A stretch of 64,000 bases of DNA, taken from NCBI GenBank assembly GCA_023131975.1, contig JAGLYV010000066.1:1-64000 (forward strand). Reading direction: 5' to 3'. A program made the position numbers and the translations under genes. Every line of letters begins with the position of its first letter. The stretch's first letter is position 1. Origin of the DNA: Candidatus Krumholzibacteriia bacterium (GTDB lineage: Bacteria > Krumholzibacteriota > Krumholzibacteriia > Krumholzibacteriales > Krumholzibacteriaceae). Shown in pieces: positions 9,150 to 55,019 of this stretch. Under the pieces are notes generated by a model, which ran no database searches, was not told the DNA's origin, and saw only the letters and a list, made by a program, of their open reading frames with translations.

Positions 9150-9521
9150 CTATTCCGGAAAATCTTCTTCGATGATATTTTCTATCATCCGTTCATCCTC
9201 GTTCTGTTTGATAAGCGACAGGACATGGTCGAATTCTGTCTTCACATTATCTTCGAAACACTCGACCATATTCTTCGCCCGCTTGCCACTGTTGATCCTC
9301 GTGAATCTCAGCCGACGCAGAAGGGATTCATACGATTTATCGGAGGTGTAGGCCGACAGGGTGTACCTGGCGACAAACTCCCCGCACTCCGCACATTCGA
9401 TATAGACCCGGATCTTTTCGCCCTTGCAGAAATACATATTGTTTTTGGTCGACGTAGAGTCGCAGTTGGGGCAATGTTCCGTCCTGGCGCTTTCGCTCGA
9501 TGTGGTCCTGTCTTTTTCCAT
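9150..9521 (-). CDS. Small zinc-ribbon protein, function unknown.
   Basis: Two CxxC pairs (CPNCDS...CAECGEF). Sits directly upstream of and co-oriented with the GT39 gene. No recognisable family. Confidence 0.4.
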   Translation of the reverse strand: MEKDRTTSSESARTEHCPNCDSTSTKNNMYFCKGEKIRVYIECAECGEFVARYTLSAYTSDKSYESLLRRLRFTRINSGKRAKNMVECFEDNVKTEFDHVLSLIKQNEDERMIENIIEEDFPE

Positions 9522-11684: not shown

Positions 11685-12374
11685 TCAGTACGATCTGTTT
11701 TTTTCTGCGTGGGGCAACTCGACAAGCCTGCTCGATATTTCGAATCCGCCTACGACCGAATAGAGGGCAGAACCCCTGATCTCAAACGGCAGTTCGACGA
11801 GTCTCGGGGGTGAAGTGGCATTGAGATGGACGTCTTTCAGAAAATCCCCACTTTCCTGAATCGATTCAGGCAGGGTGGCGATGAATATGAAGTCCATCAG
11901 CTGAACGGCCTCCTCGGGATGAAGGGCGCACATGACGGGCCGCCCCGGGTCTTCGGCCCGTACGAGACGGAACGGGGGCTGTTTTCTGGTGAGCAGTTTC
12001 CCTATCTTCAGATACGCGAAGGTGTTGGTCGCCTGGAAGGCTGGGACGAAGATGCTGTATCTGTCGTGGCTTTCGATCCTGTCGAGCAGATAGTTCAGTT
12101 CGCTTCCCGGTAGGACCTCCCGGGCCTGACTGATCCCGTGTCTGAGCAGGTGTGAGTCGATCGGGATGATCCAGAATGGCAGAAGCAGGGTCTCGGTTTC
12201 GGAATCACCGGGAGCGGGAGATCTGAATACCTGCAGGGGCTCGAGGCCGGAGCCGGTAATGATCCAGTACCGGAAACAGGTCTCGCACTGGAAAGTGATA
12301 TAACGTCCCATTACGGGAAGCTCAGTGCCACAATGTCCGCATCTTAAATGCCTGACTATGAATTCTCCACTCAT
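11685..12374 (-). CDS. Zinc-ribbon protein (paralog family with the two upstream genes). Last gene of the SPFH/Zn-ribbon operon.
   Basis: N-terminal CxxC...CxxC (CGHCGTELPVMGRYITFQCETC) followed by an LPFWIIPID motif shared with the IPFWRMNGR/IPFVMIE motif of upstream paralogs. 1-nt intergenic gap to the upstream gene. Confidence 0.5.
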   Translation of the reverse strand: MSGEFIVRHLRCGHCGTELPVMGRYITFQCETCFRYWIITGSGLEPLQVFRSPAPGDSETETLLLPFWIIPIDSHLLRHGISQAREVLPGSELNYLLDRIESHDRYSIFVPAFQATNTFAYLKIGKLLTRKQPPFRLVRAEDPGRPVMCALHPEEAVQLMDFIFIATLPESIQESGDFLKDVHLNATSPPRLVELPFEIRGSALYSVVGGFEISSRLVELPHAEKNRSY

Positions 12375-12375
12375 A

Positions 12376-13437
12376 TCACAACTCCCCTCCGAACCATGTT
12401 TCCAGCCTGCCCTTCATCCATCTCAGGGGGGGGATGAATGCCCCGGTGTGAAAGGTATCGAAAATGTACAGTGCCGCCAGGGAGATAGCGATAAGAGGCG
12501 CCCAGGTAAAGGCCATGATCGCTGCCGCCGCGGGGACATAGAACATGCTCCTGAAATCTACATGTTTTCGTTTCGGATAATTGCCTCTGATGACTTTTCC
12601 GTCGTTTCCATCTACTGTGATCGAATAGATGATTCCCCTGTGACGGTACCGCATCATGTATATCGGATAGTAGTACAGCGAGAAGTCATTGTCGAAGATC
12701 CTGAACCTGCTTGCCCGGACGATCGATCCGCTTGGAGTGGTAAGACTCGACAGGTATTTGAACCCGTTTTTTTCGGCGATCTTTCGGGGTTTCATCGGCA
12801 GGGCTATATTCACTTTCTTTTTCAGGTCGTGATCGAATTTGTCCCAGTCGAGGCTGCGGGCCCTGAGTGATATGCCCTGAAGGCCCAGGTGCCGCATCGA
12901 GCAGGCGGGAGTCGACCAGTCTACATGTTTGAATACGAGCCTGGAGAATGGGGTCCTCTCCTCCACTGTTTTATAGTTGGTTTTTACGCCATGCGCGGAC
13001 GGCGTGAGGACCTCGACCTGTCTTCTTGTAACCTTTTCACCGCAGACCCAGCCGACCAGTCTGCCGTTCATCCGCCAGAATGGAATGTTTATCAGTTGTA
13101 TGTCGAGTATAGAGGCATGTCTGGCTTTTACGCGGCCATTGGTCTTTTCGCCGAGGTAATGAAGTGCTTCAAGCCGGGCCTTTCCGGCCGAGATCTTCGG
13201 CGGGAGATAGAACCCGCGGACGCCCATGGGGCGCGTGATGTAAAGAGCCGATCCGCAATATTGACACTTTATACTCTTTTCACCTTCATGGACCCTGATC
13301 GATCCTCCGCATTCAGGGCAGGTGACTCCGAATGTCTCGCTGGAGTGTTGCTCGGGAGCATCTCCTGAGCCTTCGTCGTGTGATTCGTATGTTCCGGTCG
13401 ATTCAAGGGTGTCGACGGCCCCGATCCCATCATTCAT
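12376..13437 (-). CDS. Zinc-ribbon protein with a C-terminal transmembrane anchor (paralog family).
   Basis: Acidic N-terminal tail, then CPECGGSIRVHEGEKSIKCQYCGS zinc ribbon, then ARLEALHYLGEK...INIPFWRMNGR, then a C-terminal TM (VPAAAAIMAFTWAPLIAISLAALYIF). Overlaps the upstream gene by 8 nt. Confidence 0.5.
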   Translation of the reverse strand: MNDGIGAVDTLESTGTYESHDEGSGDAPEQHSSETFGVTCPECGGSIRVHEGEKSIKCQYCGSALYITRPMGVRGFYLPPKISAGKARLEALHYLGEKTNGRVKARHASILDIQLINIPFWRMNGRLVGWVCGEKVTRRQVEVLTPSAHGVKTNYKTVEERTPFSRLVFKHVDWSTPACSMRHLGLQGISLRARSLDWDKFDHDLKKKVNIALPMKPRKIAEKNGFKYLSSLTTPSGSIVRASRFRIFDNDFSLYYYPIYMMRYRHRGIIYSITVDGNDGKVIRGNYPKRKHVDFRSMFYVPAAAAIMAFTWAPLIAISLAALYIFDTFHTGAFIPPLRWMKGRLETWFGGEL

Positions 13438-14131
13438 TTCCCATCACTCTTTCGCGGATGCTGAATATGGCGTACGCGATGGTCGAAACGATGATGATCA
13501 ATCCGATGCGGCTGCTCCATCCGCTCATGAAGCGTCCAGCCATCAGGAGTCCGGTGAAAATGGATCCCGCGGCGATCATGTTGGGGATGCTCAGTGGCGC
13601 GGGCATCCCGTGCGGAAGTCCTTTTGCCAGAACGAGCAGGCTCCCACCTATGACGAGAGCCCTGAATTTCCTTCCTACCGCCCGGTAACTTATCCTGTAC
13701 ACAGGCAGATGAAGGGTTTTGTGAGCGTCGGCCGGAGTCTCTTTGACAGGGTGAAACTTTTCATCTGAGGTAAGGGCCTCGTCGAAGAAAGAATAGTTCC
13801 CTGCCGGGGGAAAGGGAATGGGCATTGCCCATGACGGGGCGCCAGGGGCAGGCATCGTCTGCATCTTTCCCCTGTCATTTTCAATCATCACGAATGGGAT
13901 ATATGAAAACTCTATTTTCATGTCCTTGGGACGCGCCAGTTTTTTTTCTGTAAGCAGCGATCTCAGTGCTTCTCCAGCAACCTTGTCGTTACGCTCGTGG
14001 GGCAGGATCAGATGCTCCGGCCCGTCCTGTTTTTCGACAGCAAGCGACGAACCGCAATACTCGCAGAAGAGCATCTCCTGACCGGGATGGATCTTGTTTT
14101 CACCACCACAGAGGCTGCACTGGACATTCAT
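13430..14131 (-). CDS. Zinc-ribbon protein with two C-terminal TM helices (paralog family).
   Basis: CSLCGGENKIHPGQEMLFCEYCGS zinc ribbon; AGEALRSLLTEKK...YIPFVMIEN region alignable with 12376-13437; two C-terminal TM segments. 3-nt gap from the SPFH gene. Confidence 0.5.
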   Translation of the reverse strand: MNVQCSLCGGENKIHPGQEMLFCEYCGSSLAVEKQDGPEHLILPHERNDKVAGEALRSLLTEKKLARPKDMKIEFSYIPFVMIENDRGKMQTMPAPGAPSWAMPIPFPPAGNYSFFDEALTSDEKFHPVKETPADAHKTLHLPVYRISYRAVGRKFRALVIGGSLLVLAKGLPHGMPAPLSIPNMIAAGSIFTGLLMAGRFMSGWSSRIGLIIIVSTIAYAIFSIRERVMGNE

Positions 14132-14134
14132 CTA

Positions 14135-15277
14135 CTATTCTTCCACCTTTTCTCCGCAGTTCGTGCAGAATTTCGTGCCGTGCGGCAGGGTGGTGTCGCA
14201 ATGAGGGCAGGACAGTTCCGCCCCGAGCTTGTGGCCGCAGCCGCTGCAGAATTGTGCTTCCGTGGGGAGTTCTATCCCGCAATCGGGGCACTTGTTCATC
14301 GTGACGAGCTGTGTTCCGCAGTTCTGGCAGAATCTGGAATCGGCCATTACCTCGTTATGACATTTGTGGCACTGCAGGACTTCGACTGCTGTCCCACCGC
14401 CGCGCTGCGGTGTCATGACAGTCTGGGCGAGCATTCCCGGTATCATCATTCCGAGGCCTGCTCCCACACCTACACCCATTCCACCAGCGGCTGCCGCTCC
14501 CGCGCCGCCTCCGCCGCCACCGCTTGACGCGGCGTCGCCCATGGCCTTTGCCGCTTTGAATTTGAAGAAATCGTCGAGATTGCCGACCGCCTGAAGGCCG
14601 CTTCTCTCATCGATCATCTTCTGGACCTCTGGAGGGGGGGTGATCGAATTGATGAAGAAATCGGTCAGTTCCATGCCGTATTTCGAGAAGTCGTTGACAA
14701 GGCGCTCCTGCAGTTCGACAGCCAGTTCGTCGTAGAACTGGGGGAGCTCGAAGATCGAATCGAGTTTTTCACCGAAGAGATCGTTCATGCGGGCAACGAC
14801 TACGTCTCGAAGGTAGTCCCCGATCATCTGGCTCGTGTAGACGCCCTGCGTTCCGACTACGGAATTTATAAATAGCATCGGTTCTTTTATCTTGAACGTA
14901 TACACACCGAAGGCGCGAAGCCTTACCAGTCCGAGCTTACTGTCCTTGAACGCAACGGGATCTTTCGTTCCCCATTTCTGGTTCAGGAAAGTCTTCATGT
15001 TGGCGAAATAGACCTCTGCCCTGAAGGGGCTCTTGAATCCCCAGGGAAGGGCGAGGATCTTGGTGAGTATCGGGAGGTTTTTCGTCGTCAGTGTGTGGCG
15101 ACCCGCTCCAAAGAGGTCGAGTCCTTTTCCGTCTTTGAAAAAGACGCAGGCCTGATTGTCTCTGACGATCAGTTGTGCCCCCATCTTGATCTCGGCCGAT
15201 CCTTCGGGTGGTAACCTATGGACGATCTCTTCGCCTGTCTCGTCGAACCACTCAAGTACTTCCATGAACTGCGACAT
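14135..15277 (-). CDS. SPFH/Band-7 family protein (Band_7_1, COG4260-like) with three C-terminal zinc ribbons and a Gly/Ala-rich linker.
   Basis: SPFH core ([33 protein letters not shown]...), a poly-Gly/Ala linker, then CHKCHN...CQNCG, CPDCG...CSGCG and CPHCD...CTNCG. Start set at ATG 15277 (MSQFMEV), preceded by GGAGGAGAG. The longer ORF to 15388 or a start at 15298 are alternatives. Confidence 0.7.
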
Positions 15278-15830
15278 CTCTCCTCCATTCGCTATCATGT
15301 CTCTCAGTAATTTTCGATAGTATGCCAGGCAATAGTTGCCACCAGTCATGCAGCAATCATGGTGCCAAAGAGAAACATTCACAGTCATTTATCCGTAATA
15401 CCATCTGACAGGAAAGACGATCTGGCTGGTATGGTGTAACTATAATAATTTCACGGGGTTTGCCCCTGTGGCCAGCGATTTCCCGGTGAGACTGCGGTAT
15501 GGGTATGCATTTTGCTTGTATCTGCCCCTGCATGATTGAAGTCCTTTCCGGGGTAGATAAGCGGCAAGTATTCGTACAGCCGCTCAGGTTTTTAGCCATC
15601 GTAAGGAAGGGCGGTAATGATATTTTTCTTGCCATGATCTTGAGCGTGGGCAAGAATGTTCAGAAGTGACAGACGACATACAACACGTGCTGAAGAGACA
15701 CGTAGCAGGATTTTGAAACAAAAAGGTAAAGGAGAGCAAAGGAGGTGGTCGATCGCCTGGGCCCTGGAGGCCGTAATTGGAACTGGAAAGTGAATCAGTT
15801 TTGTTATTCAGTTTTTCAAGGAGATATCTA

Positions 15831-16430
15831 ATGAAGCGTTTTATTATTGCTATGGCACTCGTAGTTTTCATGACCGGCGCCGTTTCGGCGGAAGGTATGA
15901 TGTTCGGTATAAAGGGTGGACTTAACATGGCGAATATCACCGGTGATCTTGAAGATACCAAGATGAAGATGGCGTTCGGCGGCGGCGTATGGGTGAACTT
16001 TGCTGTCACCGAGACTTTCAGTATTCAGCCGGAACTCTTCCTGATGAATAAAGGCGTAAAAGCTGATATCGATGAAGATGCAGGGATCAAGCTCAGCTAT
16101 ATCGATATTCCGATCCTTGGTAAATTTTCGGTTCCCACAGAAGGAAATTTTGGTTTCAATTTCTTCGGTGGCCCCTATATCGGATTCCTGATGTCAGCGG
16201 AAGCATACTACGAGGATGAAGAAGAGGACATAAAGGATTTCACGGAAAGCCTCGATTACGGTCTCGTTTTCGGAGCCGGTTTTGATTACATGCTCGAATC
16301 GGGCTGCATCACCTTCGACGCAAGGTATGCACTCGGACTTGCCAACCTTGCCAAGGATGATGAGGGTGATGATGAGTCCATCAAAAATGCAGGTATTCAG
16401 ATACTCGTCGGTTACGGCTTCGCTTTCTAG
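15831..16430 (+). CDS. Outer-membrane beta-barrel protein (OmpW/OMP_b-brl-type small porin-like).
   Basis: Signal peptide (MKRFIIAMALVVFMTGAVSA), alternating amphipathic beta-strands, C-terminal aromatic terminus ...VGYGFAF. GGAG Shine-Dalgarno 8 nt upstream of ATG 15831; the ORF track begins earlier at 15777. Confidence 0.7.
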   Translation: MKRFIIAMALVVFMTGAVSAEGMMFGIKGGLNMANITGDLEDTKMKMAFGGGVWVNFAVTETFSIQPELFLMNKGVKADIDEDAGIKLSYIDIPILGKFSVPTEGNFGFNFFGGPYIGFLMSAEAYYEDEEEDIKDFTESLDYGLVFGAGFDYMLESGCITFDARYALGLANLAKDDEGDDESIKNAGIQILVGYGFAF

Positions 16431-16495
16431 AAAGCTCTTCGAGTAGATGCGCGTTGGATGTATGACAGCATTCGATGACGCTTGAAAATGATAGA

Positions 16496-16524
16496 GGCAC
16501 GGTGCGAAAGCGCCGTGCCTTTTC
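16496..16524 (+). terminator. Rho-independent terminator after the OMP gene.
   Basis: GGCACGGUGCG-aaag-CGCCGUGCC stem (about 9 bp, one G-U pair) followed by UUUUCU. Confidence 0.6.
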
Positions 16525-16745
16525 TATGACAGGTGCCAGGCCGATCGGATCAGCGGGCGGGTACAGGCCAGCAGGTGGCCTGTCCGATATTCTTGCCTTG
16601 TAAACCTCCATGTAAATGACGATAATCTGTTATCTCAGGGTCGACGTGCCCGAAACTTGCATCGAGTCCCTTTCGGTCAGAAAGGATCGGATTGACTGGA
16701 GATAACAGCAGCGCTGGGAAAAACAGAAATGATGAAAGTTCAGGT

Positions 16746-17880
16746 ATGGACAAGAGGATCCGCGTCTGCGTGATGATGCCGAAATTCCACATCGGCGGCG
16801 CCGAGGTGCAGGTGATGGGTCTTCTCAGGAATATCGACAGGTCCAGATTTGCCGTTCATCTCTGCCTCTTCGGCCACGGAGTCAGTGAAATGGAAGAGGA
16901 AGCATCCAGCCTGGTAGAAGAGATATATTACCTTGATTTCAGGTGGAGATACCTGCCTGTCAGTTTCCTGAAGCTTGTAAAATATCTGCAGGACGGCAGA
17001 TTCGATGTGCTTCACGCCCACCTTGCCTTTGCCGACCTGATAGGAAGGATCGTGGCCTGGATGGCTGGAGTGCCGATCAGGATAACGACCGAGCATGGCA
17101 AGGGACTGTGGAAATCCGGATTCCAGGTGATGATCGAGCAGGCGATGAACAGGATCACCGACATGCGGATCTGCGTCAGCCGGGATATATTGAGGATCAG
17201 GAAAGAGCGTGAACATACGGACGGTTCGAAGCTGGCCTATATTCCGAACGCGGTGGATACATCTTCCTTTGGTGGGGCCCGCAGGAGTAAAGCAGATATC
17301 ATGAAGGAGTTCGGGTGGGATCCCGCCGCTCCTCTCGTACTCTCGGTAGGGAGAGTGGTAGAGGCCAAGAACTATCCTCTGCTGGTCCGGGCAGTCTCGG
17401 ATCTATCCAGAAAAATACCTGAAGTAAAATGCCTGATCGCCGGTGACGGAAGATGTCGCGGCGAGGTAGAGACAGCAATAACAGAGGACGGACTCGAAAA
17501 TACGGTCCGACTGGCCGGATCGAGAAACGACATCGCCGACCTGCTTGGGGCGGCCGATCTTTTTGTATTATCCTCCGACCGGGAGGGATTGCCGGTGACT
17601 CTTCTTGAGGCGATGGCTTCAGAGACACCGATAGTCTCGACCGACGTAGGAGGCATCTCCGAGGCGGTCAGCGACCGCGAGAGCGCGTTGCTGGTTCCGG
17701 GCCGGGGATATCAGCGCGTTGGCCGCAGCGATGGAAGATGTGCTTTCCGATCCCGATCTGGCTGCCCGGTTGACGGAAAAGGCACGCGAAATCGTAAAGG
17801 ACAGGTTCAGCATCCTGTCGACTTCGATGGAAGTCCAGGATATATACGAAAAACTGTACAGGGAGAAGCGGCAGATATGA
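16746..17880 (+). pseudogene. GT4 (group 1) glycosyltransferase with an apparent single-base frameshift near 17700-17715. The C-terminal 57 codons are in another frame; this may be an assembly error.
   Basis: Frame A reads a GT4 N-terminal domain (MDKRIRVCVMMPKFHIGGAEVQV...) and catalytic domain (EGLPVTLLEAMASETPIVSTDVGGISE...ALLVPGRG). The conserved continuation DISALAAAMEDVLSDPDLAARLTEKAREIVKDRFS...YREKRQI-stop is found in the +1 frame, ending at TGA 17878-17880. The shift falls in the run ccgggccgggg. The track ORF 16692-19085 reads through into the next gene. Confidence 0.55.
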
Positions 17881-19085
17881 CCAAGCCTGAAGCAGTCCCG
17901 GTCGTCATGTATCACGGAGTCGCGCCGGACAGGCCCGAATGGATCTGGAATCATCTTGTCACGCCTGTCGATGTGTTCGATGGGCAGATGAAAGCTCTGA
18001 AAGAAAACGGCTGGAACACGATCACGCTCAAACAGCTCTATTCACATATGAAAGATGGCGACCCACTGCCCAAAAAACCGGTCGTATTGACATTCGACGA
18101 CGGCTACCTGGACAACTGGGTATATGCATATCCTATCCTGAAGAAATATGGTCATCATGCCGTGATCTGGATGACTACCGATTTTATTGATCCATGCCCT
18201 GATCCCCGTCCCAGGATGGACGATGCCGGTATAGATGGTAGTCATGAAAAGGGCCTGGAGAGTCTGGGTTTTCTCTCGTTTGCCGAGATGAGGGTGATGG
18301 AGGAATCGGGCCATGCCGAGATCCAGAGCCATGCCTTGACACATACATGGTATTTCTCGGGAGAGAAGATACTCGATTATCACAGACCTGCCGGAAAAGA
18401 TGGATATGATCCGCTTCCCTGGCTTTCATGGAACGCGGTACCTGAGAAAAAATACGAGTATATGTCGAGAGATCTCAGCGGAGACCTGCCCTTCGGTTCT
18501 CCTGTATACAAGCACGAAAGAGCGTTGGTGGTGAGAAAGTATTTCGACGATGAAAATCTGGCGAGACGCCTTGCCGCGCATGTAGCCGCGCATGGAGGTG
18601 CCGGCTTTTTCGACATGCCCGTATGGAGGGGCGAGCTGGATGAACTGGTGACGAATTACGGATCTCCGGCAGGCAGGTACGAGACCGATGAGGAATATGA
18701 GGACAGGGTAAGACATGAACTTGCCGGATCCCGCAGTATCCTTTCCCGTGGACTCGGCCGTGATATAGATTTTCTCTGCTGGCCTGGAGGAGGGTTCAAC
18801 GATACGACCTTGAGGATCGCCTCGGAAGAGGGTTGCCTGGCTACCACCACAGACTATCATACGCCGGGAAGGAAGAATGTCCACGGAGAAAGGCCCGACA
18901 GGATAAACCGAATAGGATGCGCTTCGCCATGGATGTGGAGGGGTAATGTATCTATCAAAAATACCGACCCCGGTTTTTTCATCGCCTCGCTGGACGGATT
19001 CACGGGAAAAAAAAGGTCGATTTGGAAAATGCGCTGTTATAAGATTAAATACCTGATCAGATATTTTTTGACTGGAAACAAATAA
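17877..19085 (+). CDS. Polysaccharide deacetylase (CE4/NodB homology domain).
   Basis: ATG 17877 overlaps the GT4 stop (ATGA). NodB motifs TFDDGY, HAVIWMTTDF, SHALTH. About 400 aa, typical of CE4 proteins with extra domains. Confidence 0.75.
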   Translation: MTKPEAVPVVMYHGVAPDRPEWIWNHLVTPVDVFDGQMKALKENGWNTITLKQLYSHMKDGDPLPKKPVVLTFDDGYLDNWVYAYPILKKYGHHAVIWMTTDFIDPCPDPRPRMDDAGIDGSHEKGLESLGFLSFAEMRVMEESGHAEIQSHALTHTWYFSGEKILDYHRPAGKDGYDPLPWLSWNAVPEKKYEYMSRDLSGDLPFGSPVYKHERALVVRKYFDDENLARRLAAHVAAHGGAGFFDMPVWRGELDELVTNYGSPAGRYETDEEYEDRVRHELAGSRSILSRGLGRDIDFLCWPGGGFNDTTLRIASEEGCLATTTDYHTPGRKNVHGERPDRINRIGCASPWMWRGNVSIKNTDPGFFIASLDGFTGKKRSIWKMRCYKIKYLIRYFLTGNK

Positions 19086-19102
19086 GAAATGGAATCGTCC
19101 AC

Positions 19103-20824
19103 ATGGTATTGCCGCTTTCACCATCACTGGTAAGAAATGTCATACATCCCGTATACAGGGGGCTCAGAGGCGACAAGCTGCTCACGACCCTCAGCGAGCT
19201 TGAAAAGAACCAGTGGCTTTCGCCTGAGGAGATCGAGGATATCCAGTGGGGGCGCATGAAAGGTTTTCTCAAGGAGATATCGACGCACGTTCCATATTAC
19301 CGTGAGCTTTTCAATGAACTGGGCCTGAAGGCGGAAGACATCCAGAAGCCGACGGATTTCCTGGAGCTTCCCCTGCTGGACAAGCACTTGATCAGGCAGG
19401 AAGCGAAGAGGTTGATCACCGAGGATCCGATGAGACGGGGATACAGGTCAAGTACCGGAGGATCTACCGGCGAGCCCCTTTATTTTTCTGTCGATCTGTC
19501 CGCGGGGCCCGTCCGGAGGGCCAACACGGCGCGTAGTTACCGGATGGCAGGGATCGATATCGGCGACAAACAGGCTTTCGTCTGGGGTTTTCCCTTTGAC
19601 ATTCCCCTGAAGGAAAGAATGGCCAGCGCGATAAAGAACTATTTCAACAACATCACATATCTTTCATCCTTCAATATGTCCGAAAACGCGATGCTCGATT
19701 ATGCCAACAAGTTGAAAAGGTACAAGCCCGACCTCGTCATAGGCTATCCCTCCGCGGTGACGCTGTTCGCGGAATTCATCAAGAGCAAGAATATAAGCGG
19801 TATCAAGCCAAAGTCGGTAATCTCCAGTGGTGAGAAGATCTATCCCCAGCAGAGGGAGTTGCTCGAGGAAGTCTTCGGGTGCAGGGTGTTCGACCGCTAT
19901 GGAAGCAACGAGTTTGCAAATGTCGCCCATGAATGTGACCAGCACAAGGGGCTGCATCTCTTCACCGATCTACTCTATTTTGAGATCTTGCGTGAGAACG
20001 GCAGGCCTGCCGCGCCGGGCGAAGTCGGAGAGATCGTGATCACCGATTTTCTGAATCTCTACATGCCATTCGTTCGTTACAGAACGGGAGATATGGCGAT
20101 TCCCACGGACAGAGTCTGTGAATGTGGCCGTGGGCTTCCTCTCATAGAGAGGATCGAGGGGCGGACTTTTGACAATATCCTCACACCTGACGGGCGTTCG
20201 ATCGGCGGGTATTTCTGGACCTATCTCTCCAGGGTCGTTCCAGGTATAAAGCAGTTCCAGGTCGAACAGAAACAGAGAAGCAACATCACTTTCCGGATAG
20301 TCCGCGGCCCCGACTGGAACGATGGAAATGAAGCCCGGCTCATCAGCGAGATCCGCGAGAACATGGGCGAGGCTGTCAATATCAAGATCGACAAGGTGGA
20401 TGAGATTCCTCTGTCGCCGGCCGGAAAGTTCAGGTTCATCGTTTCGAAGGTGGAGGAACGGATGGTCGTCAAATCGAAGGTGCACAAGGCCAATGTGACG
20501 GCAGCCGATCCTTCCAGGGTCGATTGTATAATCGTGGACGAGGATATCCTGGAGCTGAGTAACATCATCCCCGGCGAGCATGTCCTGATCGTGGACAATA
20601 CGAACGGCGCGAGGATCGAGACGTTCGTCATCAAGGGAGAGAAGGGCAGCGGAGAACTCATCTCCTGTGGCGCGGTCGCGCAGCATATCCACGATGGCGA
20701 TGAGATCATTATCATGGCCTTTACCTGGTCCGAGGAGACTCACGGACAGTTCAGCAATATTCTGATAGATGAGAATAACAAGTTCGTCCGCTATCTTACC
20801 GAGAAGGCGGGAGACAAGATATGA
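19103..20824 (+). CDS. CapK/PaaK/F390-synthetase-like adenylate-forming enzyme fused to a C-terminal PanD-like (aspartate decarboxylase fold) domain that appears catalytically degenerate.
   Basis: Residues 1-450 have CapK/PaaK features (NQWLSPEEIEDIQWGRMK, SSTGGSTGEP AMP-binding motif, YGSNE, RYRTGD). Residues 454-573 (nt 20462-20824) align to PanD (KSKVHKANVT..D..IVDEDILE...NGARIETFVIKGEKGSGE..CGAVAQHIHDGDEIIIMAF) but lack the Gly-Ser self-cleavage site (RVDCII instead of GSITI) and carry Phe in place of the catalytic Tyr (ETFVI versus ETYVI). Confidence 0.75.
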   Translation: MVLPLSPSLVRNVIHPVYRGLRGDKLLTTLSELEKNQWLSPEEIEDIQWGRMKGFLKEISTHVPYYRELFNELGLKAEDIQKPTDFLELPLLDKHLIRQEAKRLITEDPMRRGYRSSTGGSTGEPLYFSVDLSAGPVRRANTARSYRMAGIDIGDKQAFVWGFPFDIPLKERMASAIKNYFNNITYLSSFNMSENAMLDYANKLKRYKPDLVIGYPSAVTLFAEFIKSKNISGIKPKSVISSGEKIYPQQRELLEEVFGCRVFDRYGSNEFANVAHECDQHKGLHLFTDLLYFEILRENGRPAAPGEVGEIVITDFLNLYMPFVRYRTGDMAIPTDRVCECGRGLPLIERIEGRTFDNILTPDGRSIGGYFWTYLSRVVPGIKQFQVEQKQRSNITFRIVRGPDWNDGNEARLISEIRENMGEAVNIKIDKVDEIPLSPAGKFRFIVSKVEERMVVKSKVHKANVTAADPSRVDCIIVDEDILELSNIIPGEHVLIVDNTNGARIETFVIKGEKGSGELISCGAVAQHIHDGDEIIIMAFTWSEETHGQFSNILIDENNKFVRYLTEKAGDKI

Positions 20825-20914
20825 TGTTAGGGTATGGTAATACAGCCCGGTTTATGATATAATGTCCACCTATGGCACAGGGTAATGTTGCCACACGCAT
20901 CAGGAGGAGAGGGA

Positions 20915-21280
20915 ATGAAACGTCTGCTGCTTAAATCGATGATCCTCAAGGCAAGAATCACCCAGGCTGATCTTCGGTATGTCGGAAGCATAACGATAGA
21001 CGAGGACCTTATCGACCGCGCAAATCTCAGTGAGCATGAGAACGTCCATGTCATCGACAGGACCAATGGAAAAAGGCTTGAGACATATGTGATAAAGGGA
21101 GATCGGGGCAGTGGAGTGATCTGCATGAACGGGGCTGCCGCCCACCTGATCAACAAGGACGATGAAGTGGATATCATGGCCTTTTCCTGGTCTACCGGCG
21201 AGGCAGACCCGGTCTTTATCGAAGTTGACGGCGACAATCATTATACAAAAGTCGTGCGAATGGACGAATTCAGGGGTTAG
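20915..21280 (+). CDS. panD: Aspartate 1-decarboxylase (PanD), canonical pyruvoyl-dependent type.
   Basis: MKRLLLKSMILKARITQADLRYVGSITIDEDL with Gly24-Ser25 cleavage site, KRLETYVI (Arg54/Tyr58 equivalents), GAAAHL. Strong SD AGGAGGAGAGGGA before ATG 20915. The track ORF starts upstream at 20885. Confidence 0.8.
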   Translation: MKRLLLKSMILKARITQADLRYVGSITIDEDLIDRANLSEHENVHVIDRTNGKRLETYVIKGDRGSGVICMNGAAAHLINKDDEVDIMAFSWSTGEADPVFIEVDGDNHYTKVVRMDEFRG

Positions 21281-21319
21281 AGCTGATATGGGGGCTGATC
21301 GATGCGGGGCGGATTCCAG

Positions 21320-22447
21320 ATGTTCAACAGGGGATTCCACCTGTTCGATCTCTATGGCATCCCCGTTGAACTGAACATCAGCTGGGTCTTTATTCTGGCA
21401 CTTGTTACCTGGTCTTTTGCTACCGGTTATATCCCCGATACTTATGGAGATTCCTTTGGCGTGGCCACAACATGGCTGCTGGCCTTCAGTGTGGCGATAC
21501 TCCTTTTTCTGTCGATCCTGTTTCACGAGTTGAGTCACTCGATTGTGGCGGTCCGTAACGGTCTCCCCATAAAAAGGATCACTCTTTTCATGTTCGGCGG
21601 TGTCGCCCAGATGAGCCGGGAAGTAGATTCCGCCGGGCTCGAATTCCGGATGGCCGCGGCCGGGCCGCTTTTCACTCTGGTCCTGGCCCTGACGCTTTAT
21701 GGATCAGCTTATCTGTTGAGTGGGTGGCTTTTCGGCCAGGCCCTTCTTCGAATGCTCGCTAACATCAATCTCGGCGTCTTTTTTTTCAACATGATTCCGG
21801 GGTTCCCGCTTGACGGCGGTCGGATACTTCGGGCCGCGATATGGGCGAGGAACAGGAATATCCGGAAGGCGACATTGGTAGCGAGCAATATAGGCAAGGG
21901 GTTCGCCTGGTTGTTGATCATATTCGGAGCCTTCACTTTCCTCGCGTTCGGCGGCTCGATCGGTGGCCTGTGGATGATCTTTATAGGCATGTTTCTGAAA
22001 AAAGCCGCGACGGACAGTTACAGGAATGTAGTGTACAGGGAGGTTCTGGGCGAGATCAGGATATCGGATATCATGCGGGAAGAAGTGATTACCGTGGATG
22101 CCTCGATGGACCTGATGACCCTGGTGGACGAATATTTCCTGAAATACCATTTCGGTGCTTTTCCCGTAGTGGCTGACGGGATCCTGCAGGGAATGGTCTC
22201 CCTGGACGCCGTGAGAAAACGTCCCAGGGAAGAATGGCAAAGATTGACAGTCTCGGATGTAATGGGACGTGACGCCATGTCATGTGTCGTATTCGAAAAT
22301 GAACATGCCGACCGTCTTTTTTTTCTGATAATACAGAAGGGATACAGTCTGGTGCCTGTGGCCAGAGTGGACGGCAGGATCATCGGTATGGTGACCCGGC
22401 GTGATTTCTCCGATGCCGTCAAGGTAATGACATCACTTCTCAAGTAG
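21320..22447 (+). CDS. M50-family site-2 protease (zinc metalloprotease) with tandem CBS domains.
   Basis: HELSH zinc-binding motif, FNMIPGFPLDGGRIL (LDG motif), multiple TM helices, then two CBS-like segments (ISDIMREEVITVD..., VSDVMGRDAMSC...). Confidence 0.8.
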   Translation: MFNRGFHLFDLYGIPVELNISWVFILALVTWSFATGYIPDTYGDSFGVATTWLLAFSVAILLFLSILFHELSHSIVAVRNGLPIKRITLFMFGGVAQMSREVDSAGLEFRMAAAGPLFTLVLALTLYGSAYLLSGWLFGQALLRMLANINLGVFFFNMIPGFPLDGGRILRAAIWARNRNIRKATLVASNIGKGFAWLLIIFGAFTFLAFGGSIGGLWMIFIGMFLKKAATDSYRNVVYREVLGEIRISDIMREEVITVDASMDLMTLVDEYFLKYHFGAFPVVADGILQGMVSLDAVRKRPREEWQRLTVSDVMGRDAMSCVVFENEHADRLFFLIIQKGYSLVPVARVDGRIIGMVTRRDFSDAVKVMTSLLK

Positions 22448-22679
22448 CGGGTTCATTGTCCCGGGCGTAATCTTCCTCGAGTTCATCAATTTCTTCTTCC
22501 AGGAGAACGGTGACCGCTCCATACTTGTCCACCCTCCTGGCTCTCTTGCTTTCCTGTTTTCTGGTATGGTGTTCGCCCATGTCTCCGGATGAATTATTTC
22601 TGGGCTTGTGGTGCTTGATCGTGCGCTTCAAGTCGTCCGCTCCTTTTTTCGATCTTTTGCCCCCCTGGCTTCGTGGCAA
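22440..22679 (-). CDS. Small basic/acidic hypothetical protein (79 aa), weakly supported.
   Basis: Lys/Arg-rich N-terminal half and acidic C-terminus (LLEEEIDELEEDYARD), co-oriented downstream of the lipoprotein gene. No family recognised; could be spurious. Confidence 0.25.
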   Translation of the reverse strand: MPRSQGGKRSKKGADDLKRTIKHHKPRNNSSGDMGEHHTRKQESKRARRVDKYGAVTVLLEEEIDELEEDYARDNEPAT

Positions 22680-22885: not shown

Positions 22886-23653
22886 CTATCCGGACGGCCT
22901 GTTTTTTTCGAATATCGCGGGATCGATCTCGACATCGAAACTGATCTCATCCCACTTGTATTCACTGGACAGCGTACCATTCTCATAAAGCCTGATGTGG
23001 AACGGTACTTTCATGCCGGAGACCTTTCTGTAATCATCCATCAGCAGATGTGTTTCACCGCCCTGGCCTGACTCGATCTTCCTGGCCAACAGATGCGAGA
23101 TGTTCAGGAAGTCCAGAAGTGTCGTGTCTTCTCCAGCGATACAGGCTACCCTTGTGAGGTCTGACCCCGAATAAAGAGAATCGTCGGGTACGCCGGGAAC
23201 GAGGTAGAACGAGTCACAACTGGTAAGGAAATACGTGATCCCGTCTACTTCCCGCATCCTTTTCTTCAGCATGTCGGTGGTTCTCTGATTCTGTCTGATC
23301 CCAAGATTTATTTCCGCCCATGCCTGCTCTCCGTTCAACGTGTAAACGAAATAGAAGGGGTGGTCGTTGGCGCTGTAATCCTGGTCGAGCAGGAGTTTGT
23401 CGGGTTTATTCGTATAGTGTGTACACTCCGCCGTCAATCTGCCCCATCCGGCCCATATCGATATCAGTGTTCCTTTTTCGATCCTGGTGGTCCAGCCCGT
23501 CAGTTTTGATTCTCCCCCTATCGCTTTCACAGCGTCATTGAGGACCCTTTTTGCCGGATCCTTTTCCGTTGGAGAACAGGCGGCAATTAACATGGATATG
23601 ACCAGTACGGCGAGCAACACCGTAGTTCGTCTTTCAATACGAAACAGATTCAT
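22886..23653 (-). CDS. Lipoprotein of unknown function (possibly LolA-like fold).
   Basis: Signal peptide plus lipobox LIAACS. About 250 aa soluble domain with no catalytic motifs recognised. Confidence 0.5.
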   Translation of the reverse strand: MNLFRIERRTTVLLAVLVISMLIAACSPTEKDPAKRVLNDAVKAIGGESKLTGWTTRIEKGTLISIWAGWGRLTAECTHYTNKPDKLLLDQDYSANDHPFYFVYTLNGEQAWAEINLGIRQNQRTTDMLKKRMREVDGITYFLTSCDSFYLVPGVPDDSLYSGSDLTRVACIAGEDTTLLDFLNISHLLARKIESGQGGETHLLMDDYRKVSGMKVPFHIRLYENGTLSSEYKWDEISFDVEIDPAIFEKNRPSG

Positions 23654-33628: not shown

Positions 33629-34267
33629 TTACACCAGAGTTCCAATGAACATGACGGACAATGTGGCAAGAGCGATCTTGGCGCTCCAGGGGAAAGTCAG
33701 ATTTTCGATGCTGAAGCCGGGGGGGATCCCGAGCGCTTCAATCGGGTTTGTGGTGGTTCTGCCAGGTCTTGTGGCTATCCCCGAACCGATTTTAGCAAGC
33801 GGTGATTTGTATTCTTCCACGGGGTAGAGCATCGAAGGCTCGACAAGGGATGTAGCGTGACGTTCCAGCATACTTGTCGTTCCGGCGTGCATGACCCGCT
33901 CAAAGACACTCAGAAGAAAGACGATCGTGAACAATATAAAAGCGCCCACCGGGCCGGTAAGGCCACCGACCGCCATAGAGGTGATGAAATCCTCAAGTTT
34001 GATCCTGCCTGACCTGTAACGCGAGACCGAACAGAGAGCTCCGACGATGATTCCCAGGAGGACTATCGCCAGCCCTCCATATCCAGAGTAGAGTACCCGG
34101 GCTATGCAGGCCCAGACGATGATCATCGAAGCGGATACGATCGTGACTATGGTTCTTTCCCGGTTCATGAATATGTTATAAAAAACGGCAAGGACAGCGA
34201 GAACCTTAAGCAGGCTGATTATTATGCTTGTCGGTCCCAATTGTTGCCTTTCGATAGAGTATTCCAA
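33629..34267 (-). CDS. Integral membrane protein, unknown function.
   Basis: Five to six hydrophobic helices; no motif recognised. Confidence 0.4.
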   Translation of the reverse strand: MEYSIERQQLGPTSIIISLLKVLAVLAVFYNIFMNRERTIVTIVSASMIIVWACIARVLYSGYGGLAIVLLGIIVGALCSVSRYRSGRIKLEDFITSMAVGGLTGPVGAFILFTIVFLLSVFERVMHAGTTSMLERHATSLVEPSMLYPVEEYKSPLAKIGSGIATRPGRTTTNPIEALGIPPGFSIENLTFPWSAKIALATLSVMFIGTLV

Positions 34268-45452: not shown

Positions 45453-46370
45453 ATGATAGAAGTCAGTGAGATAAGAAAACAGTTTGGAGAAGTCAGGGCC
45501 GTTGACGGCCTCAGTTTTAAGGTGGCCGAAGGTGAGATCTTTGGTCTTCTCGGCCCGAATGGCGCGGGAAAGACGACTACGATATCGATGCTTTCGGGTC
45601 TTCTCGCGCCGGATTCAGGGACGATAACGGTCGCGGGCATGGATGCCTCCAGAGGCGACCGCAGGGTGAGGGCGCTGATGGGCGTGATTCCGCAGGAGAT
45701 CGCTCTCTACGAGGAACTTTCAGGCCGCGAGAATCTGCATTTCTGGGGTGGACTTTACGGCCTGACAGGCGCGGCTCTTAAAAGAGAGACCGACAGGGTA
45801 CTCGATATGGTCGATCTGACCGACAGGGCAGACGACCAGGTAGGAAAATACTCTGGAGGGATGAAAAGGAGGATCAATCTCTGTGCCGGTCTCATTCACA
45901 GTCCGAAGATCATTCTGCTCGACGAACCGACGCTGGGAATAGATCCCCAGGCGAGGATCAAGATACTCGACATCGTGAAAAAAGAAGCGGAATCCGGAAC
46001 GACGATCATCTATACCACCCACTATCTCGAGGAGGCGGAAGAGCTCTGTGACAGGATCGCGATCATAGATAAGGGCGCCATCCATGCTGAAGGGAGCCTT
46101 GCCGAACTTGTCGACCTTGTGGGAGAAGAAGATATGATCACCGTTACCGGCGATTTCAAATCGTGGAAAGGCGACAACCTGCCCGAAGGTGTGAGGCTCG
46201 ACCATATGGAGGAGGGCAGCCTGAGGTTCTATATCTCCAGGAAGGACTCTCTGGGGTCTCTTCTCAATTCCTTTTTCGGCGCGGGGATCAGTGTGGAAAG
46301 TGTCTCGATCAGGGAGCCGGGGCTCCAGGGCGTATTCCTCAAGCTGACCGGCCGGGAACTGAGGGATTGA
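45453..46370 (+). CDS. ABC transporter ATP-binding protein (ABC-2/DrrA-like exporter ATPase).
   Basis: Walker A GLLGPNGAGKTTT, signature YSGGMKRR, Walker B ILLDEPT, H-loop. Confidence 0.85.
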   Translation: MIEVSEIRKQFGEVRAVDGLSFKVAEGEIFGLLGPNGAGKTTTISMLSGLLAPDSGTITVAGMDASRGDRRVRALMGVIPQEIALYEELSGRENLHFWGGLYGLTGAALKRETDRVLDMVDLTDRADDQVGKYSGGMKRRINLCAGLIHSPKIILLDEPTLGIDPQARIKILDIVKKEAESGTTIIYTTHYLEEAEELCDRIAIIDKGAIHAEGSLAELVDLVGEEDMITVTGDFKSWKGDNLPEGVRLDHMEEGSLRFYISRKDSLGSLLNSFFGAGISVESVSIREPGLQGVFLKLTGRELRD

Positions 46371-48902: not shown

Positions 48903-50681
48903 TCAATCCATGCTGTAATGGATAATGGCTCCGTTCGATCCAACGGCATTTATATCAAAGGGCCCGTTTCCCCAGACCGATCTGAGTGTCCCCCCGACGG
49001 GGCTGCTCTGGGGATTCCAGTCCGTACCGTCGAAATGCAGGATGATCCCTTCCTGTCCGACCGCGAAGACGTCGCCAGGGCCGCTTCCCCAGACTCCGTA
49101 AAGCTGTCGGGTCGTGCCACTGTCCATCTTCACCCATTCGACTCCATCGTAATGCAATATGGCCCCCTGGTATCCGACAGCGTAAATATCGTTCCATGCG
49201 GTTCCCCAGATGCCCACGAGGAGGAATGCCGATGGTGCCGCGACCTCATCCCATTCGGTCCCGTTATAATGGATGATGGTCCCCAGGCCCCCGACCGCCC
49301 ATACGTCATCCGGAGCAGCTGCCCACACACCGTGAAGAGACAGTGTCGTGTTGCTTACCATCTCCTCCCAGTCGACTCCGTCATAACGCATGATCCGGCC
49401 TTCCCATCCGACGGCGAAGATCACGTCGCCGCCCGCTCCGGAAAAGGCGTTCAGGTCGATATCGTACGGTATCGTCTCCCTCTGCCACTCCGAACCGGTG
49501 TACTTGAAAAGAGTGCCGTATTCTCCGGATAAAAACACGTTGTTTTCCGCCGTCCCATGGACCGAGTTGAGGTGAAGGCTGGTCGGCCCCGGCCATGTGT
49601 CCCACCCGAACCCGTTGAAATGAATTATGGCTCCGTTTCTGCCGACTGCCCAGGCATCGGTTTCTGAACTGCTCCAGACTCCCGTCAGGTGTTGTGACCT
49701 CGCGTCCGGGATCCCGGTCCAGCTGCTGCCGTTATATTCGATTATCACTCCAAGATACCCGGCCGCGTAGCAGAGGCTGGTGTTGATGGCCGTGATCCCG
49801 TGGAGCCTGTACTCGGTCGCCTGGTTCATCAGGGACCAGGAATCGCCGTCGTAGAAAAGAGTCCTGCCGTGGTCGCAGGACGCGAATACCATATCACTCG
49901 AAAGTCCGCTGATCCCGGTAATATCCTCTGTGAAGAACATTCCCTCATCGATCGAAACGATCATGGGCGACCAGAACGTCCCGTCGTAATGGAGGATGTT
50001 TCCGCTGAGTCCGCCCATGAAGATGTCATCTGCTGAACTTCCCCATATCGTGCGGAACCCCGTGACATTTATCCATTCGATCTCCGTCCAGGACGAGCCG
50101 TCGTAATGGAGGGTCGCGCCGTAGTCTCCGGCGGCGTAGATGTTCGATGACGACGAACCCCAGATCGCGTAGAGATCGTCGGTGACAGATGTGACCACCG
50201 GACTCCAGTCTGTTCCATCATAATGGATCATTGTACCGTAGTAGCCAACGGCATAGACATCGCTGCCGGAGGACCCCCATACGCCGTTCAGGTCCGTCTG
50301 CACCCCCGAATCCATCATGGTCCAGGCGGTCCCGTCATAATGCAGGATCACGCCTGATTCGCACGCCGCGAAGATGTCAGAGCCGGAAAGACCCCAGATC
50401 GAATTGACCTGAAGCTCCGTGCCGGAATCCATGGTGTTCCATGAGGACCCATCGAAATGGATGATGGTGCCATCAGATCCTCCCACGAAAACATCGTTTT
50501 CGGAAGCATGCCATATTGTTCTCAGATTCCTCGAGCTGGAAACCAGGTGCCATGACCCCGTCTGTTCCCCGGGTTGCTCCGGCGCGACCGACGAGTCGCT
50601 TCCGCACGATGTGATGATGAAGGAAAAGGTCATGACTGCCATCAGGGGCAGGATGGATGTCAGATGTCTGCGTTTGAACAT
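48903..50681 (-). CDS. Lipoprotein composed of about 14 tandem ~40-aa repeats (consensus ...G.I(L/I)HYDG..W......(S/T)..L.G(V/I)WGSS..D(V/I)(F/Y)AVG..G...), predicted beta-propeller.
   Basis: Signal peptide plus lipobox (IITSCGS). Repeats visible by eye: TIIHFDGSSW...IWGLSGSDIFAAC, VILHYDGTAW...VWGSSGSDVYAVG, TMIHYDGTDW...IWGSSSSNIYAAG, ATLHYDGSSW, NILHYDGTFW, AILHYDGVEW, IILHFDGTDW and others. Confidence 0.65.
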   Translation of the reverse strand: MFKRRHLTSILPLMAVMTFSFIITSCGSDSSVAPEQPGEQTGSWHLVSSSRNLRTIWHASENDVFVGGSDGTIIHFDGSSWNTMDSGTELQVNSIWGLSGSDIFAACESGVILHYDGTAWTMMDSGVQTDLNGVWGSSGSDVYAVGYYGTMIHYDGTDWSPVVTSVTDDLYAIWGSSSSNIYAAGDYGATLHYDGSSWTEIEWINVTGFRTIWGSSADDIFMGGLSGNILHYDGTFWSPMIVSIDEGMFFTEDITGISGLSSDMVFASCDHGRTLFYDGDSWSLMNQATEYRLHGITAINTSLCYAAGYLGVIIEYNGSSWTGIPDARSQHLTGVWSSSETDAWAVGRNGAIIHFNGFGWDTWPGPTSLHLNSVHGTAENNVFLSGEYGTLFKYTGSEWQRETIPYDIDLNAFSGAGGDVIFAVGWEGRIMRYDGVDWEEMVSNTTLSLHGVWAAAPDDVWAVGGLGTIIHYNGTEWDEVAAPSAFLLVGIWGTAWNDIYAVGYQGAILHYDGVEWVKMDSGTTRQLYGVWGSGPGDVFAVGQEGIILHFDGTDWNPQSSPVGGTLRSVWGNGPFDINAVGSNGAIIHYSMD

Positions 50682-51869: not shown

Positions 51870-51904
51870 GTCGGTGACTTTCATTTGGGATCCGGGGGTT
51901 GATC

Positions 51905-53767: not shown

Positions 53768-53806
53768 TAATGGACGGTAGCCGGGATACTGAAAGCTGGA
53801 AAGTAA

Positions 53807-54997: not shown

Positions 54998-55019
54998 AAG
55001 AAAAGGATTGTAACAACTT

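Follow-up and report, generated by a model that had tools for sequence, protein, structure and literature searches.

The locus described here lies in a stretch of 64,000 nucleotides from a Candidatus Krumholzibacteriia bacterium (contig JAGLYV010000066.1, assembly GCA_023131975.1), the whole of which we refer to as the window. Within 16746-21280, four plus-strand genes are packed closely together, coding for a GT4 glycosyltransferase, a CE4 deacetylase, a fusion of a PaaK/CapK-type ligase with a domain resembling aspartate decarboxylase (PanD), and a stand-alone PanD. We designate the fused PanD-like domain F and the stand-alone protein S. The parts of this cassette, with the evidence on which each was assigned, are as follows.

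16746..17880, plus strand: GT4 glycosyltransferase with a +1 frameshift (Pfam, NCBIfam, three-frame translation)
17877..19085, plus strand: CE4 deacetylase, NodB/PgaB-type, 402 residues (Pfam, NCBIfam, motifs)
19103-20824, plus strand: fusion protein, 573 residues (ligase residues 1-448 followed by F residues 449-573)
19103..20446, plus strand: ligase part of the fusion, residues 1-448 (NCBIfam, PDB matches, AlphaFold2, Foldseek, motifs)
20447..20824, plus strand: F, the PanD-like domain, residues 449-573 (Pfam Asp_decarbox, alignment to 2c45)
20915..21280, plus strand: S, the stand-alone PanD, 121 residues (TIGR00223, alignment to PDB PanDs)

An earlier account of this neighbourhood, made from the letters alone (hereafter the sequence-only reading), gave coordinates, a shared strand and a tight spacing that all prove correct: the GT4 stop overlaps the CE4 start as ATGA (17877-17880), 17 nucleotides separate the end of CE4 at 19085 from the start of the fusion at 19103, and 90 nucleotides lie between the end of the fusion at 20824 and the ATG of S at 20915, which is preceded by a strong ribosome-binding site (AGGAGGAGAGGGA). 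Its domain calls (a frameshifted GT4, a CE4, a CapK-PanD-like fusion and a PanD) are likewise upheld by Pfam and NCBIfam. It counted five genes, however, where we find four, and it took the last of them for a canonical PanD, whereas S lacks both Lys9 and His11.

S and F are both clear homologues of canonical PanD, the pyruvoyl-dependent homotetramer known from E. coli and M. tuberculosis. S scores 128 bits against the Pfam family PF02261 and 116.7 bits against TIGR00223, over the cut-off of 106. F matches Pfam Asp_decarbox on residues 453-560 of the fusion (1.7e-26, 92.8 bits against a cut-off of 25) and aligns with M. tuberculosis PanD 2c45 at E = 9e-19, while its TIGR00223 score of 78.9 bits falls under the cut-off of 106. 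When aligned to the M. tuberculosis and E. coli enzymes, the S protein of the window reads LLKSMILKARIT against LKSKIHRATVT of PanD, with Met for Lys9 and Leu for His11; it keeps YVGS (Tyr22, Gly24 and Ser25), Arg54, Thr57, Tyr58 and Asn72, and has Asp for Ile86. The F domain of the window reads VKSKVHKANVT, so that Lys9 and His11 are retained, as is Arg54, but Arg-Val-Asp-Cys replaces Tyr-x-Gly-Ser, and Phe and Cys stand for Tyr58 and Asn72 respectively. The same division is seen throughout the family, as tabulated here in PanD numbering for S from 41 distinct loci and F from 46 loci.

Position 9: S has Met in 38 and Ala in 3, never Lys; F has Lys in 46/46
Position 11: S has Leu, Met, Ile, Phe or Val, never His; F has His in 46/46
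Position 22: S has Tyr in 100%; F is variable
Position 24: S has Gly in 100%; F has Asp in 45 and Glu in 1
Position 25: S has Ser in 100%; F has Cys in 35, Ser in 6 and Gly in 5
Position 54: S has Arg in 100%; F has Arg in 45/45
Position 57: S has Thr in 100%; F has Thr in 38 and Ala in 7
Position 58: S has Tyr in 100%; F has Phe in 39/46
Position 72: S has Asn in 100%; F has Asn in 3, and Cys, Ser, Gly or Thr in 42/46

To guard against a selective choice of positions, we also ran an unbiased conservation test, taking all positions with a conservation of 85% or more among 115 canonical PanD representatives, which number 37. In S just three of them are lost, namely Lys9, His11 and Ile86. F has lost Leu20, Tyr22, Gly24, Thr27, Tyr58, Ile60, Asn72 and Pro103, and keeps Ser25 in only 13% of cases. 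The two sets of losses share no position, and S and F jointly hold the full conserved set: every residue of the canonical active site is present in the pair taken together, but no single chain of the cassette has them all. F might be thought a second self-processing PanD, but we reject this, given that position 25 is Gly in 5/46 sequences, Gly24 is always replaced by Asp or Glu, and Tyr58 is mostly Phe.

The structure of canonical PanD gives this pattern a possible meaning. PanD active sites lie at protomer-protomer interfaces (PMC4410942, PMC6969166), with Pyr25, Thr57 and Tyr58 supplied by one subunit, and Lys9* and Arg54* by its neighbour (PMC3314653, PMC4410942, PMC6969166); Lys9* forms an ion pair with the alpha-carboxylate of the substrate (PMC3314653), and both Lys9 and His11 have been described as strictly conserved. 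The wall contributed by the adjacent subunit is built from strands that contain residues 2-14, 82-94, 41-48 and 52-59 (PMC11808261). The drift in S (positions 9, 11 and 86) falls on this adjacent-subunit wall, and the drift in F falls on the pyruvoyl side. Because the losses are complementary and PanD sites lie between protomers, we predict an obligate S/F heteromer, and consider it likely that S and F form such a complementary complex. S would undergo self-processing at Gly24-Ser25 to yield the pyruvoyl cofactor and would contribute Thr57, Tyr58 and Asn72, and F would complete the site in trans with Lys9, His11 and Arg54, which act from the neighbouring subunit. In an alternating head-to-tail S-F-S-F ring, interfaces that join the pyruvoyl side of S to the Lys side of F would be complete and the converse F/S interfaces dead, such that half the sites would be active, in contrast to the four equivalent sites of the canonical homotetramer. 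S alone would be inactive or unprocessed, and beta-alanine would therefore form only upon docking of S to the ligase. Crystals of the E. coli PanD mutant H11A reportedly contained unprocessed protein; if that is correct, F may also be needed for the maturation of S.

An alternative is that S is an ordinary homotetrameric PanD that acts by itself, and that F is non-catalytic, serving in oligomerisation, in sensing of aspartate or beta-alanine, or as a scaffold. The S score over the NCBIfam PanD equivalog cut-off and the retention of its processing site and proton donor fit this view, as do three fusion loci that have no adjacent S. It must nevertheless be reconciled with the absence of Lys9 and His11 from 41/41 S proteins when the first of these residues pairs with the substrate alpha-carboxylate (PMC3314653). 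Such losses are rare among close relatives of S: a HMMER search with S against 1.84 billion cluster representatives returned 3264 PanD-like proteins, and of the 150 PanD representatives nearest to S, 140 carry the full canonical signature including Lys9 and His11. Moreover, F keeps both residues at 100% and its losses do not overlap with those of S, which would not be expected of a merely structural domain. We therefore regard an autonomous S as quite unlikely. Only two of the 150 nearest PanDs have Met9, and both are S-type; in the one whose context was inspected (protein P0122, found at L087-L089), His11 is kept and the gene sits in the order GT4-CE4-fusion-S-M50. This S-type PanD may mark a transitional stage on the way to losing the Lys/His face.

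The enzyme to which F is joined is a PaaK/CapK/F390-synthetase-type member of the adenylate-forming (ANL) enzymes, with both sub-domains present, and F follows its C-terminal sub-domain with almost no linker. This branch corresponds to COG1541, the precomputed Pfam assignment is PF27533 (CapK_C), and PDB sequence matches are to PaaK and BT_0428. An AlphaFold2 single-chain model of the fusion (predicted local distance difference test 86.3, predicted template modelling score 0.74) supports the two folds only; its Foldseek neighbours are PaaK1/2, BT_0428, 2-hydroxyisobutyryl-CoA ligase (HCL), ClxA, NatL2 and AjiA1, with E-values from 1e-20 to 5e-28, the latter for PaaK1/2. The adenylation motifs are intact: STGGSTGEP at 117, YRTGD at 326 and GKFR at 441, which includes the catalytic Lys 442. 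Across 24 diverse homologues Thr118, Gly119, Gly123, Gly329, Asp330 and Gly441 are invariant, and Lys442 is conserved in at least 90%.

The cassette ligase thus has its fold and adenylation motifs in common with PaaK1/2, BT_0428, HCL, NatL2, AjiA1, ClxA and BagE/FevW, but is only 17-22% identical to PaaK-family ligases and scores far under every NCBIfam equivalog cut-off, the matches in question being to the DVU_1553 family, FlxY and PaaK. It also differs from the known PaaK-family ligases in bearing an extra C-terminal PanD-like domain, and in context, since it sits among glycan genes and they belong to aromatic-acid catabolism or benzoxazole synthesis. Identity as the phenylacetate-CoA ligase PaaK (TIGR02155) was rejected, with 87.3 bits against a cut-off of 646.3 and no paa genes nearby. 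NCBI calls members of the fusion family 'aspartate 1-decarboxylase', JGI calls them 'phenylacetate-CoA ligase', and both names are partial or misleading. Within the PaaK family, ClxA, NatL2 and AjiA1, which act in benzoxazole biosynthesis, make their ester or amide products straight from the adenylate, with no need of coenzyme A (CoA).

How widely the cassette is distributed was examined by scanning one genome per species, which yielded 80 loci that were analysed with tblastn and blastp. More than 100 protein clusters, at 48-80% identity, have the architecture of the 573-residue fusion; they come from Krumholzibacteriota, Nitrospirae, and metagenome-assembled genomes (MAGs) labelled Latescibacterota or Eisenbacteria, and the fusion of the window has a counterpart with 100% identity in Candidatus Krumholzibacteria MAGs. 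Fused architecture is present in 45 distinct loci, of which 40 have at least 500 nucleotides of downstream sequence and could be tested for S. S lies downstream of the fusion in 37 of these 40, in 34 of them within 300 nucleotides, CE4 is directly upstream of the fusion in 29/45 loci, and GT4 is upstream of CE4 in 19/26. Comparative genomics, which the sequence-only reading had put forward as a check, hence finds this gene order again in species-level genomes by the dozen, with proteins that are 48-80% identical. This arrangement is far beyond chance, and that it constitutes a conserved functional cassette is, judged from these sequences, close to certain. As S is found in 37/40 loci but CE4 in only 29/45, the invariant core is the fusion plus S, with GT4-CE4 a frequent but non-obligatory partner. 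Loci that lack GT4 and CE4 keep fusion-S-M50 (M50 being a peptidase gene described below), and one of them adjoins a divergent Wzx flippase and a sulfotransferase. Within phyla the family is patchy, as for an accessory trait.

A further 33 loci carry ligase relatives (31-43% identity) that stop precisely at the boundary with the PanD-like domain, and an S-type PanD is present in 0/33 of them. The order GT4-CE4-ligase recurs in three of these ligase-only loci, from an Armatimonadetes MAG, a Desulfobacteraceae-labelled MAG and one unclassified MAG. In three other MAGs (Ignavibacteriaceae, Dehalococcoidales and Zixibacteria; L079, L082 and L083), there are four tandem ligase-only CapK-type paralogues with 27-36% identity to the window ligase, which suggests arrays with different acyl specificities.

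In some phyla the surroundings of the cassette point to polysaccharides. Three Nitrospirae loci (L002, L003 and L042) place the cassette inside Wzx/Wzy polysaccharide clusters, with Poly_export, Wzz, Wzy, a Wzx flippase, several epimerases, a nucleotidyl-transferase, further glycosyltransferases and acyltransferases as neighbours. Among ligase-only loci, that from Armatimonadetes (L052) likewise lies in a Wzx/Wzy cluster, flanked on one side by Wzy, UDP-glucose dehydrogenase and epimerase genes, and on the other by a Wzx flippase and an acetyltransferase. Conversely, Pfam scans of all 48 larger open reading frames (ORFs) of the 64-kb window revealed no panB, panC, panE or coaBC, which bears out the earlier statement that no panB/panC is adjacent and leads us to reject a pantothenate operon. 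Canonical PanD makes beta-alanine for pantothenate, usually in genomes with panB/panC; the cassette PanDs instead sit among glycan genes, with F carried on a 448-residue ligase.

It could still be argued that S and F are a housekeeping source of beta-alanine, that the ligase is a beta-alanyl-CoA ligase or a non-orthologous pantothenate synthetase joining pantoyl-AMP to beta-alanine, and that the sugar genes are accidental neighbours. About a third of loci do carry fusion-S without GT4 or CE4, and HCL, one of the relatives of the ligase, acts on a pantoate-like substrate. Against this, ligase-only homologues accompany GT4, CE4 and polysaccharide clusters, S itself lies inside an exopolysaccharide cluster in Nitrospirae, and neither the missing pan and coaBC genes of the window nor the patchy, accessory-like distribution suits a housekeeping role. 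We consider this explanation extremely unlikely.

CE4 matches Pfam Polysacc_deac_1 (9e-18, 64.9 bits against a cut-off of 23.1) and the NCBIfam PgaB N-deacetylase domain (4.5e-32, 111 bits against 322), and carries the motifs TFDDG (DDG at residue 74), H-x3-H (HALTH) and WPGG (residue 302). The shortfall of 111 bits against 322 and the lack of a signal peptide rule it out as a PgaB equivalog: PgaB is periplasmic, whereas the cassette CE4, with a maximum hydropathy of 0.79 and no predicted signal peptide or membrane segment, is probably cytoplasmic. For GT4 both domains are detected by Pfam (Glyco_transf_4, and Glycos_transf_1 at 3e-31); the top NCBIfam match is TIGR03088, a PEP-CTERM/XrtA-type glycosyltransferase, at 173 bits and under its cut-off, and there are sub-threshold matches to BshA (85.7 bits) and MshA (61 bits). 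None of the four cassette proteins has a signal peptide or a membrane segment, and all are soluble by prediction, so the chemistry of the cassette is predicted to be cytoplasmic and to act on nucleotide- or lipid-linked intermediates.

From these elements a pathway of four steps can be proposed. GT4 would transfer an N-acetyl-hexosamine onto a glycan intermediate, lipid-linked or otherwise, and CE4 would then strip the N-acetyl group to leave a free amine, both as their families suggest. The S/F heteromeric PanD, for which the residue pattern is observed and the assembly predicted, would convert L-aspartate to beta-alanine. Lastly, the ligase would adenylate beta-alanine to beta-alanyl-AMP and, with no CoA involved, pass the beta-alanyl group straight to the amine of the sugar. 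The expected product is an N-beta-alanyl amino sugar, the free amine of which would place a strongly basic group on a surface polysaccharide. We judge the chances of this four-step sugar-tailoring explanation as a whole to be about even. That the product is an amide between beta-alanine and a sugar on a glycan seems, at best, slightly more probable than that, and we place less confidence still in the direction of the amide, from the beta-alanine carboxyl to the sugar amine. The fuller proposal, in which an obligate split-site, two-gene PanD makes beta-alanine only at the ligase and channels it into an undescribed cationic N-beta-alanyl modification of surface glycans, and in which the ligase-only relatives may be a general N-acyl-swapping family for amino sugars, is tentative, and we put it at somewhat under even.

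Several observations weigh against this scheme. In about a third of loci the 10-kb flanks contain neither GT4 nor CE4, and the link with de-N-acetylation is therefore not obligatory. At three fusion loci (L006, L017 and L038) no S is found in the available flanks, and two of them, L017 and L006, are also without CE4; their S may lie at another place in the genome, or the fusions may have a different mode of action. In Krumholzibacteria-type genomes, including that of the window and L001, no recognisable polysaccharide cluster surrounds the cassette, which in these two is flanked by an outer-membrane beta-barrel protein and an M50 peptidase. Nor are S and F sister clades in a simple neighbour-joining (NJ) tree: S forms a clade in 37/40 bootstraps and F in 33/40, each spanning Krumholzibacteria-type and Nitrospirae members, but the two are sisters in 0/40. 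A single recent duplication is thus unsupported and a shared origin by one duplication unshown, although a simple tree of this kind is weak either way. Finally, the substrate of the ligase and the direction of the amide, like the acyl group and the acceptor, are features that we infer from sequence. The sequence-only reading had proposed that a glycan is decorated with PanD-derived beta-alanine, apart from pantothenate synthesis. That proposal pointed in the right direction and is strengthened by the cross-phyla cassette, the Wzx/Wzy clusters, the ligase-only relatives and the lack of pan genes in the window, but with the GT4-CE4 pair in only 29/45 loci and a PanD that is not canonical it is only partly supported, and unproven.

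The direction of the amide deserves separate consideration, for the same heteromeric PanD could feed a reaction of opposite polarity. Here the ligase would adenylate a carboxylate on the glycan, such as that of a uronic acid, and the amine of beta-alanine would attack it to give a uronamide with a beta-alanine spacer, CE4 being a separate tailoring step. CapK-type ligases are named after capsule loci, and in the type 1 capsule of S. aureus taurine, a close analogue of beta-alanine, is amide-linked to GalNAcA. The C-terminal sub-domain of ANL enzymes shapes the nucleophile tunnel, and it is on this side that F is attached, and the Armatimonadetes ligase-only locus includes a UDP-glucose dehydrogenase. 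Yet sugar dehydrogenases are not among the conserved neighbours of the PanD-bearing cassette; what is conserved there is a deacetylase, which yields an amine rather than a carboxylate, and ANL pockets normally take small carboxylates. On balance the reverse amide is unlikely.

A second variant concerns the acceptor. In mycothiol and bacillithiol synthesis, MshA-MshB-MshC and BshA-BshB-BshC follow a logic of glycosyltransferase, deacetylase and ligase, with the acylation step of MshC being ATP-dependent; GlcNAc transfer, de-N-acetylation and re-acylation as proposed here for the cassette follow the same general logic, to which NodB/NodA and LpxC/LpxD can be added. The cassette might by analogy make a soluble small glycoside, proceeding from GlcNAc-X through GlcN-X to beta-alanyl-GlcN-X. 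The sub-threshold scores of GT4 to BshA and MshA, the predicted cytoplasmic location of all the enzymes and the stand-alone position of the Krumholzibacteria-type cassette, without Wzx/Wzy genes, are in keeping with this. However, the best GT4 match is to an exopolysaccharide-type glycosyltransferase at 173 bits, the Nitrospirae and ligase-only Armatimonadetes loci lie inside Wzx/Wzy clusters, and the deacetylase is a CE4 and not of the LmbE type of MshB and BshB, so that we think a small glycoside very unlikely. The cassette differs from the Msh and Bsh systems in further respects: its ligase is of ANL/PaaK type and not a Cys-tRNA synthetase paralogue, its acyl group is predicted to be beta-alanine made in situ, and its context in two phyla is a polysaccharide, not a small thiol.

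Returning to the predicted S/F heteromer, partial parallels exist among other enzymes. In trypanosomatids, AdoMetDC is a pyruvoyl-dependent decarboxylase that is active only with a dead paralogue, prozyme (PMC5201418). As in S/F, a pyruvoyl decarboxylase is paired with a catalytically dead paralogue, but the two systems differ in fold and family. Prozyme acts allosterically, by lifting an autoinhibition, whereas F is predicted to donate Lys9, His11 and Arg54 in trans; F, unlike prozyme, also forms one polypeptide with the enzyme that acts next in the pathway. Enterobacterial PanZ (PanM) binds PanD at the protomer interface and is needed for its maturation and regulation (PMC4410942, PMC3473359), which likewise places a partner protein at that interface. 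PanZ is, however, a CoA-responsive GNAT-fold protein that binds outside the ring and is no PanD paralogue, and enterobacterial PanD keeps Lys9 and His11. The heteromeric pantothenate kinase of apicomplexans (PMC8366970; bioRxiv 10.64898/2026.01.22.701186) is a complex of two degenerate paralogues with fewer complete sites than subunits, and to that extent resembles S/F; it belongs to an unrelated enzyme family and unrelated organisms, and is not fused to a downstream enzyme. The literature that we searched, on aspartate decarboxylase, CapK, beta-alanyl O-antigen, F390 synthetase and Krumholzibacteria pantothenate topics, contained no description of the fusion or the cassette, and a PanD site shared out over a small subunit and a pseudo-subunit that is fused to a ligase is absent from the sequence-only reading as well.

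If true, S/F would be the first heteromeric PanD, an enzyme that is otherwise a textbook self-processing homotetramer and a drug target, and would provide a clean bacterial case of complementary degeneration leading to an obligate enzyme pair coupled to the enzyme that consumes its product. The proposal also offers a role that can be tested for a branch of PaaK/CapK-type ligases that is widespread yet uncharacterised, and predicts that beta-alanine occurs as a new substituent of glycans in phyla that metagenomes, almost exclusively, have made known. On a practical level, automated metabolic reconstructions probably err when they score the fusion gene as paaK (aromatic degradation) or panD (pantothenate prototrophy).

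In the genome of the window itself, the GT4 gene calls for comment. Its frame opens at the ATG at 16746, reads ...ESALLVPG, and breaks in a GGG run at 17699-17701 where an extra G causes a +1 shift. The authentic C-terminus, AGDISALAAAMEDVL...YREKRQI, continues in another frame for the last ~60 codons, up to the TGA at 17878-17880; this stretch (AGDISALAAAMEDVLSDPDLAARL...YREKRQI and stop) aligns with the LLVPPGD/LLVPSGD region and the C-termini of intact orthologues. The shifted frame is free of stops and runs on into CE4, giving a single GT4::CE4 ORF of 797 residues, or 779 counted from the ATG at 16746. We rejected a sequencing error as the most economical explanation on finding the identical extra G in three other, near-identical assemblies (one from Logan, a scaffold from ENA and a MAG contig from NCBI), which differ from the window by 3-7 single-nucleotide polymorphisms each over 3-9 kb and in all of which a 779-residue GT4-CE4 protein is called. 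The frameshift may thus reflect recent gene fusion or pseudogenisation rather than assembly error. An intact GT-B fold, with both Rossmann halves and the C-terminal helix, is not found in the window GT4, though it is in orthologues elsewhere, and the GT4 step in this genome may be impaired, or may be carried out by the GT4::CE4 read-through protein. The other three cassette genes are intact.

The immediate upstream neighbour of the cassette in the window is the gene for the outer-membrane beta-barrel protein, and downstream, starting 21 nucleotides after S, lies a gene for a protein with four hydrophobic segments:

21302..22447, plus strand: M50 (site-2-protease-type) membrane peptidase with two CBS domains (Pfam Peptidase_M50 and CBS)

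S is followed by this M50 gene in the majority of Krumholzibacteria-type loci, including those at only ~45-59% identity, but this does not hold for the Nitrospirae loci. Its membership of the system is uncertain, and the association could be plain synteny or a functional link. An Rfam search of 15300-22600 for regulatory RNAs in the gaps gave no match at E <= 1, and a scan for promoters and terminators returned counts equal to the shuffled expectation, which are uninformative on operon structure.

Other parts of the window hold features of possible interest in their own right. On the minus strand at 11685-15388, four abutting or overlapping genes resemble an uncharacterised operon; the first codes for an SPFH/Band-7 protein (14135-15388) with a Gly-rich linker and three C-terminal double zinc ribbons, and after it come proteins of 233, 353 and 229 residues that have CxxC...CxxC zinc ribbons at their N-termini and match no Pfam family significantly. 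For six ORFs of 123-592 residues Pfam likewise gave no family at E <= 1e-4; they lie at 48903-50681, 22886-23653, 33629-34267, 9150-9521 and 45720-46205 on the minus strand and 16-504 on the plus strand; that at 22886-23653, of 255 residues, is conserved beside an aldo-keto reductase in related loci. Lastly, a run of unusual acetyl-metabolism fusions occupies 51899-57458 on the plus strand and comprises an acetyl-CoA hydrolase/transferase-GNAT fusion (622 residues), an HDAC-family deacetylase (396 residues), and an 812-residue protein with acetate-kinase-like and phosphotransacetylase (PTA_PTB) domains.

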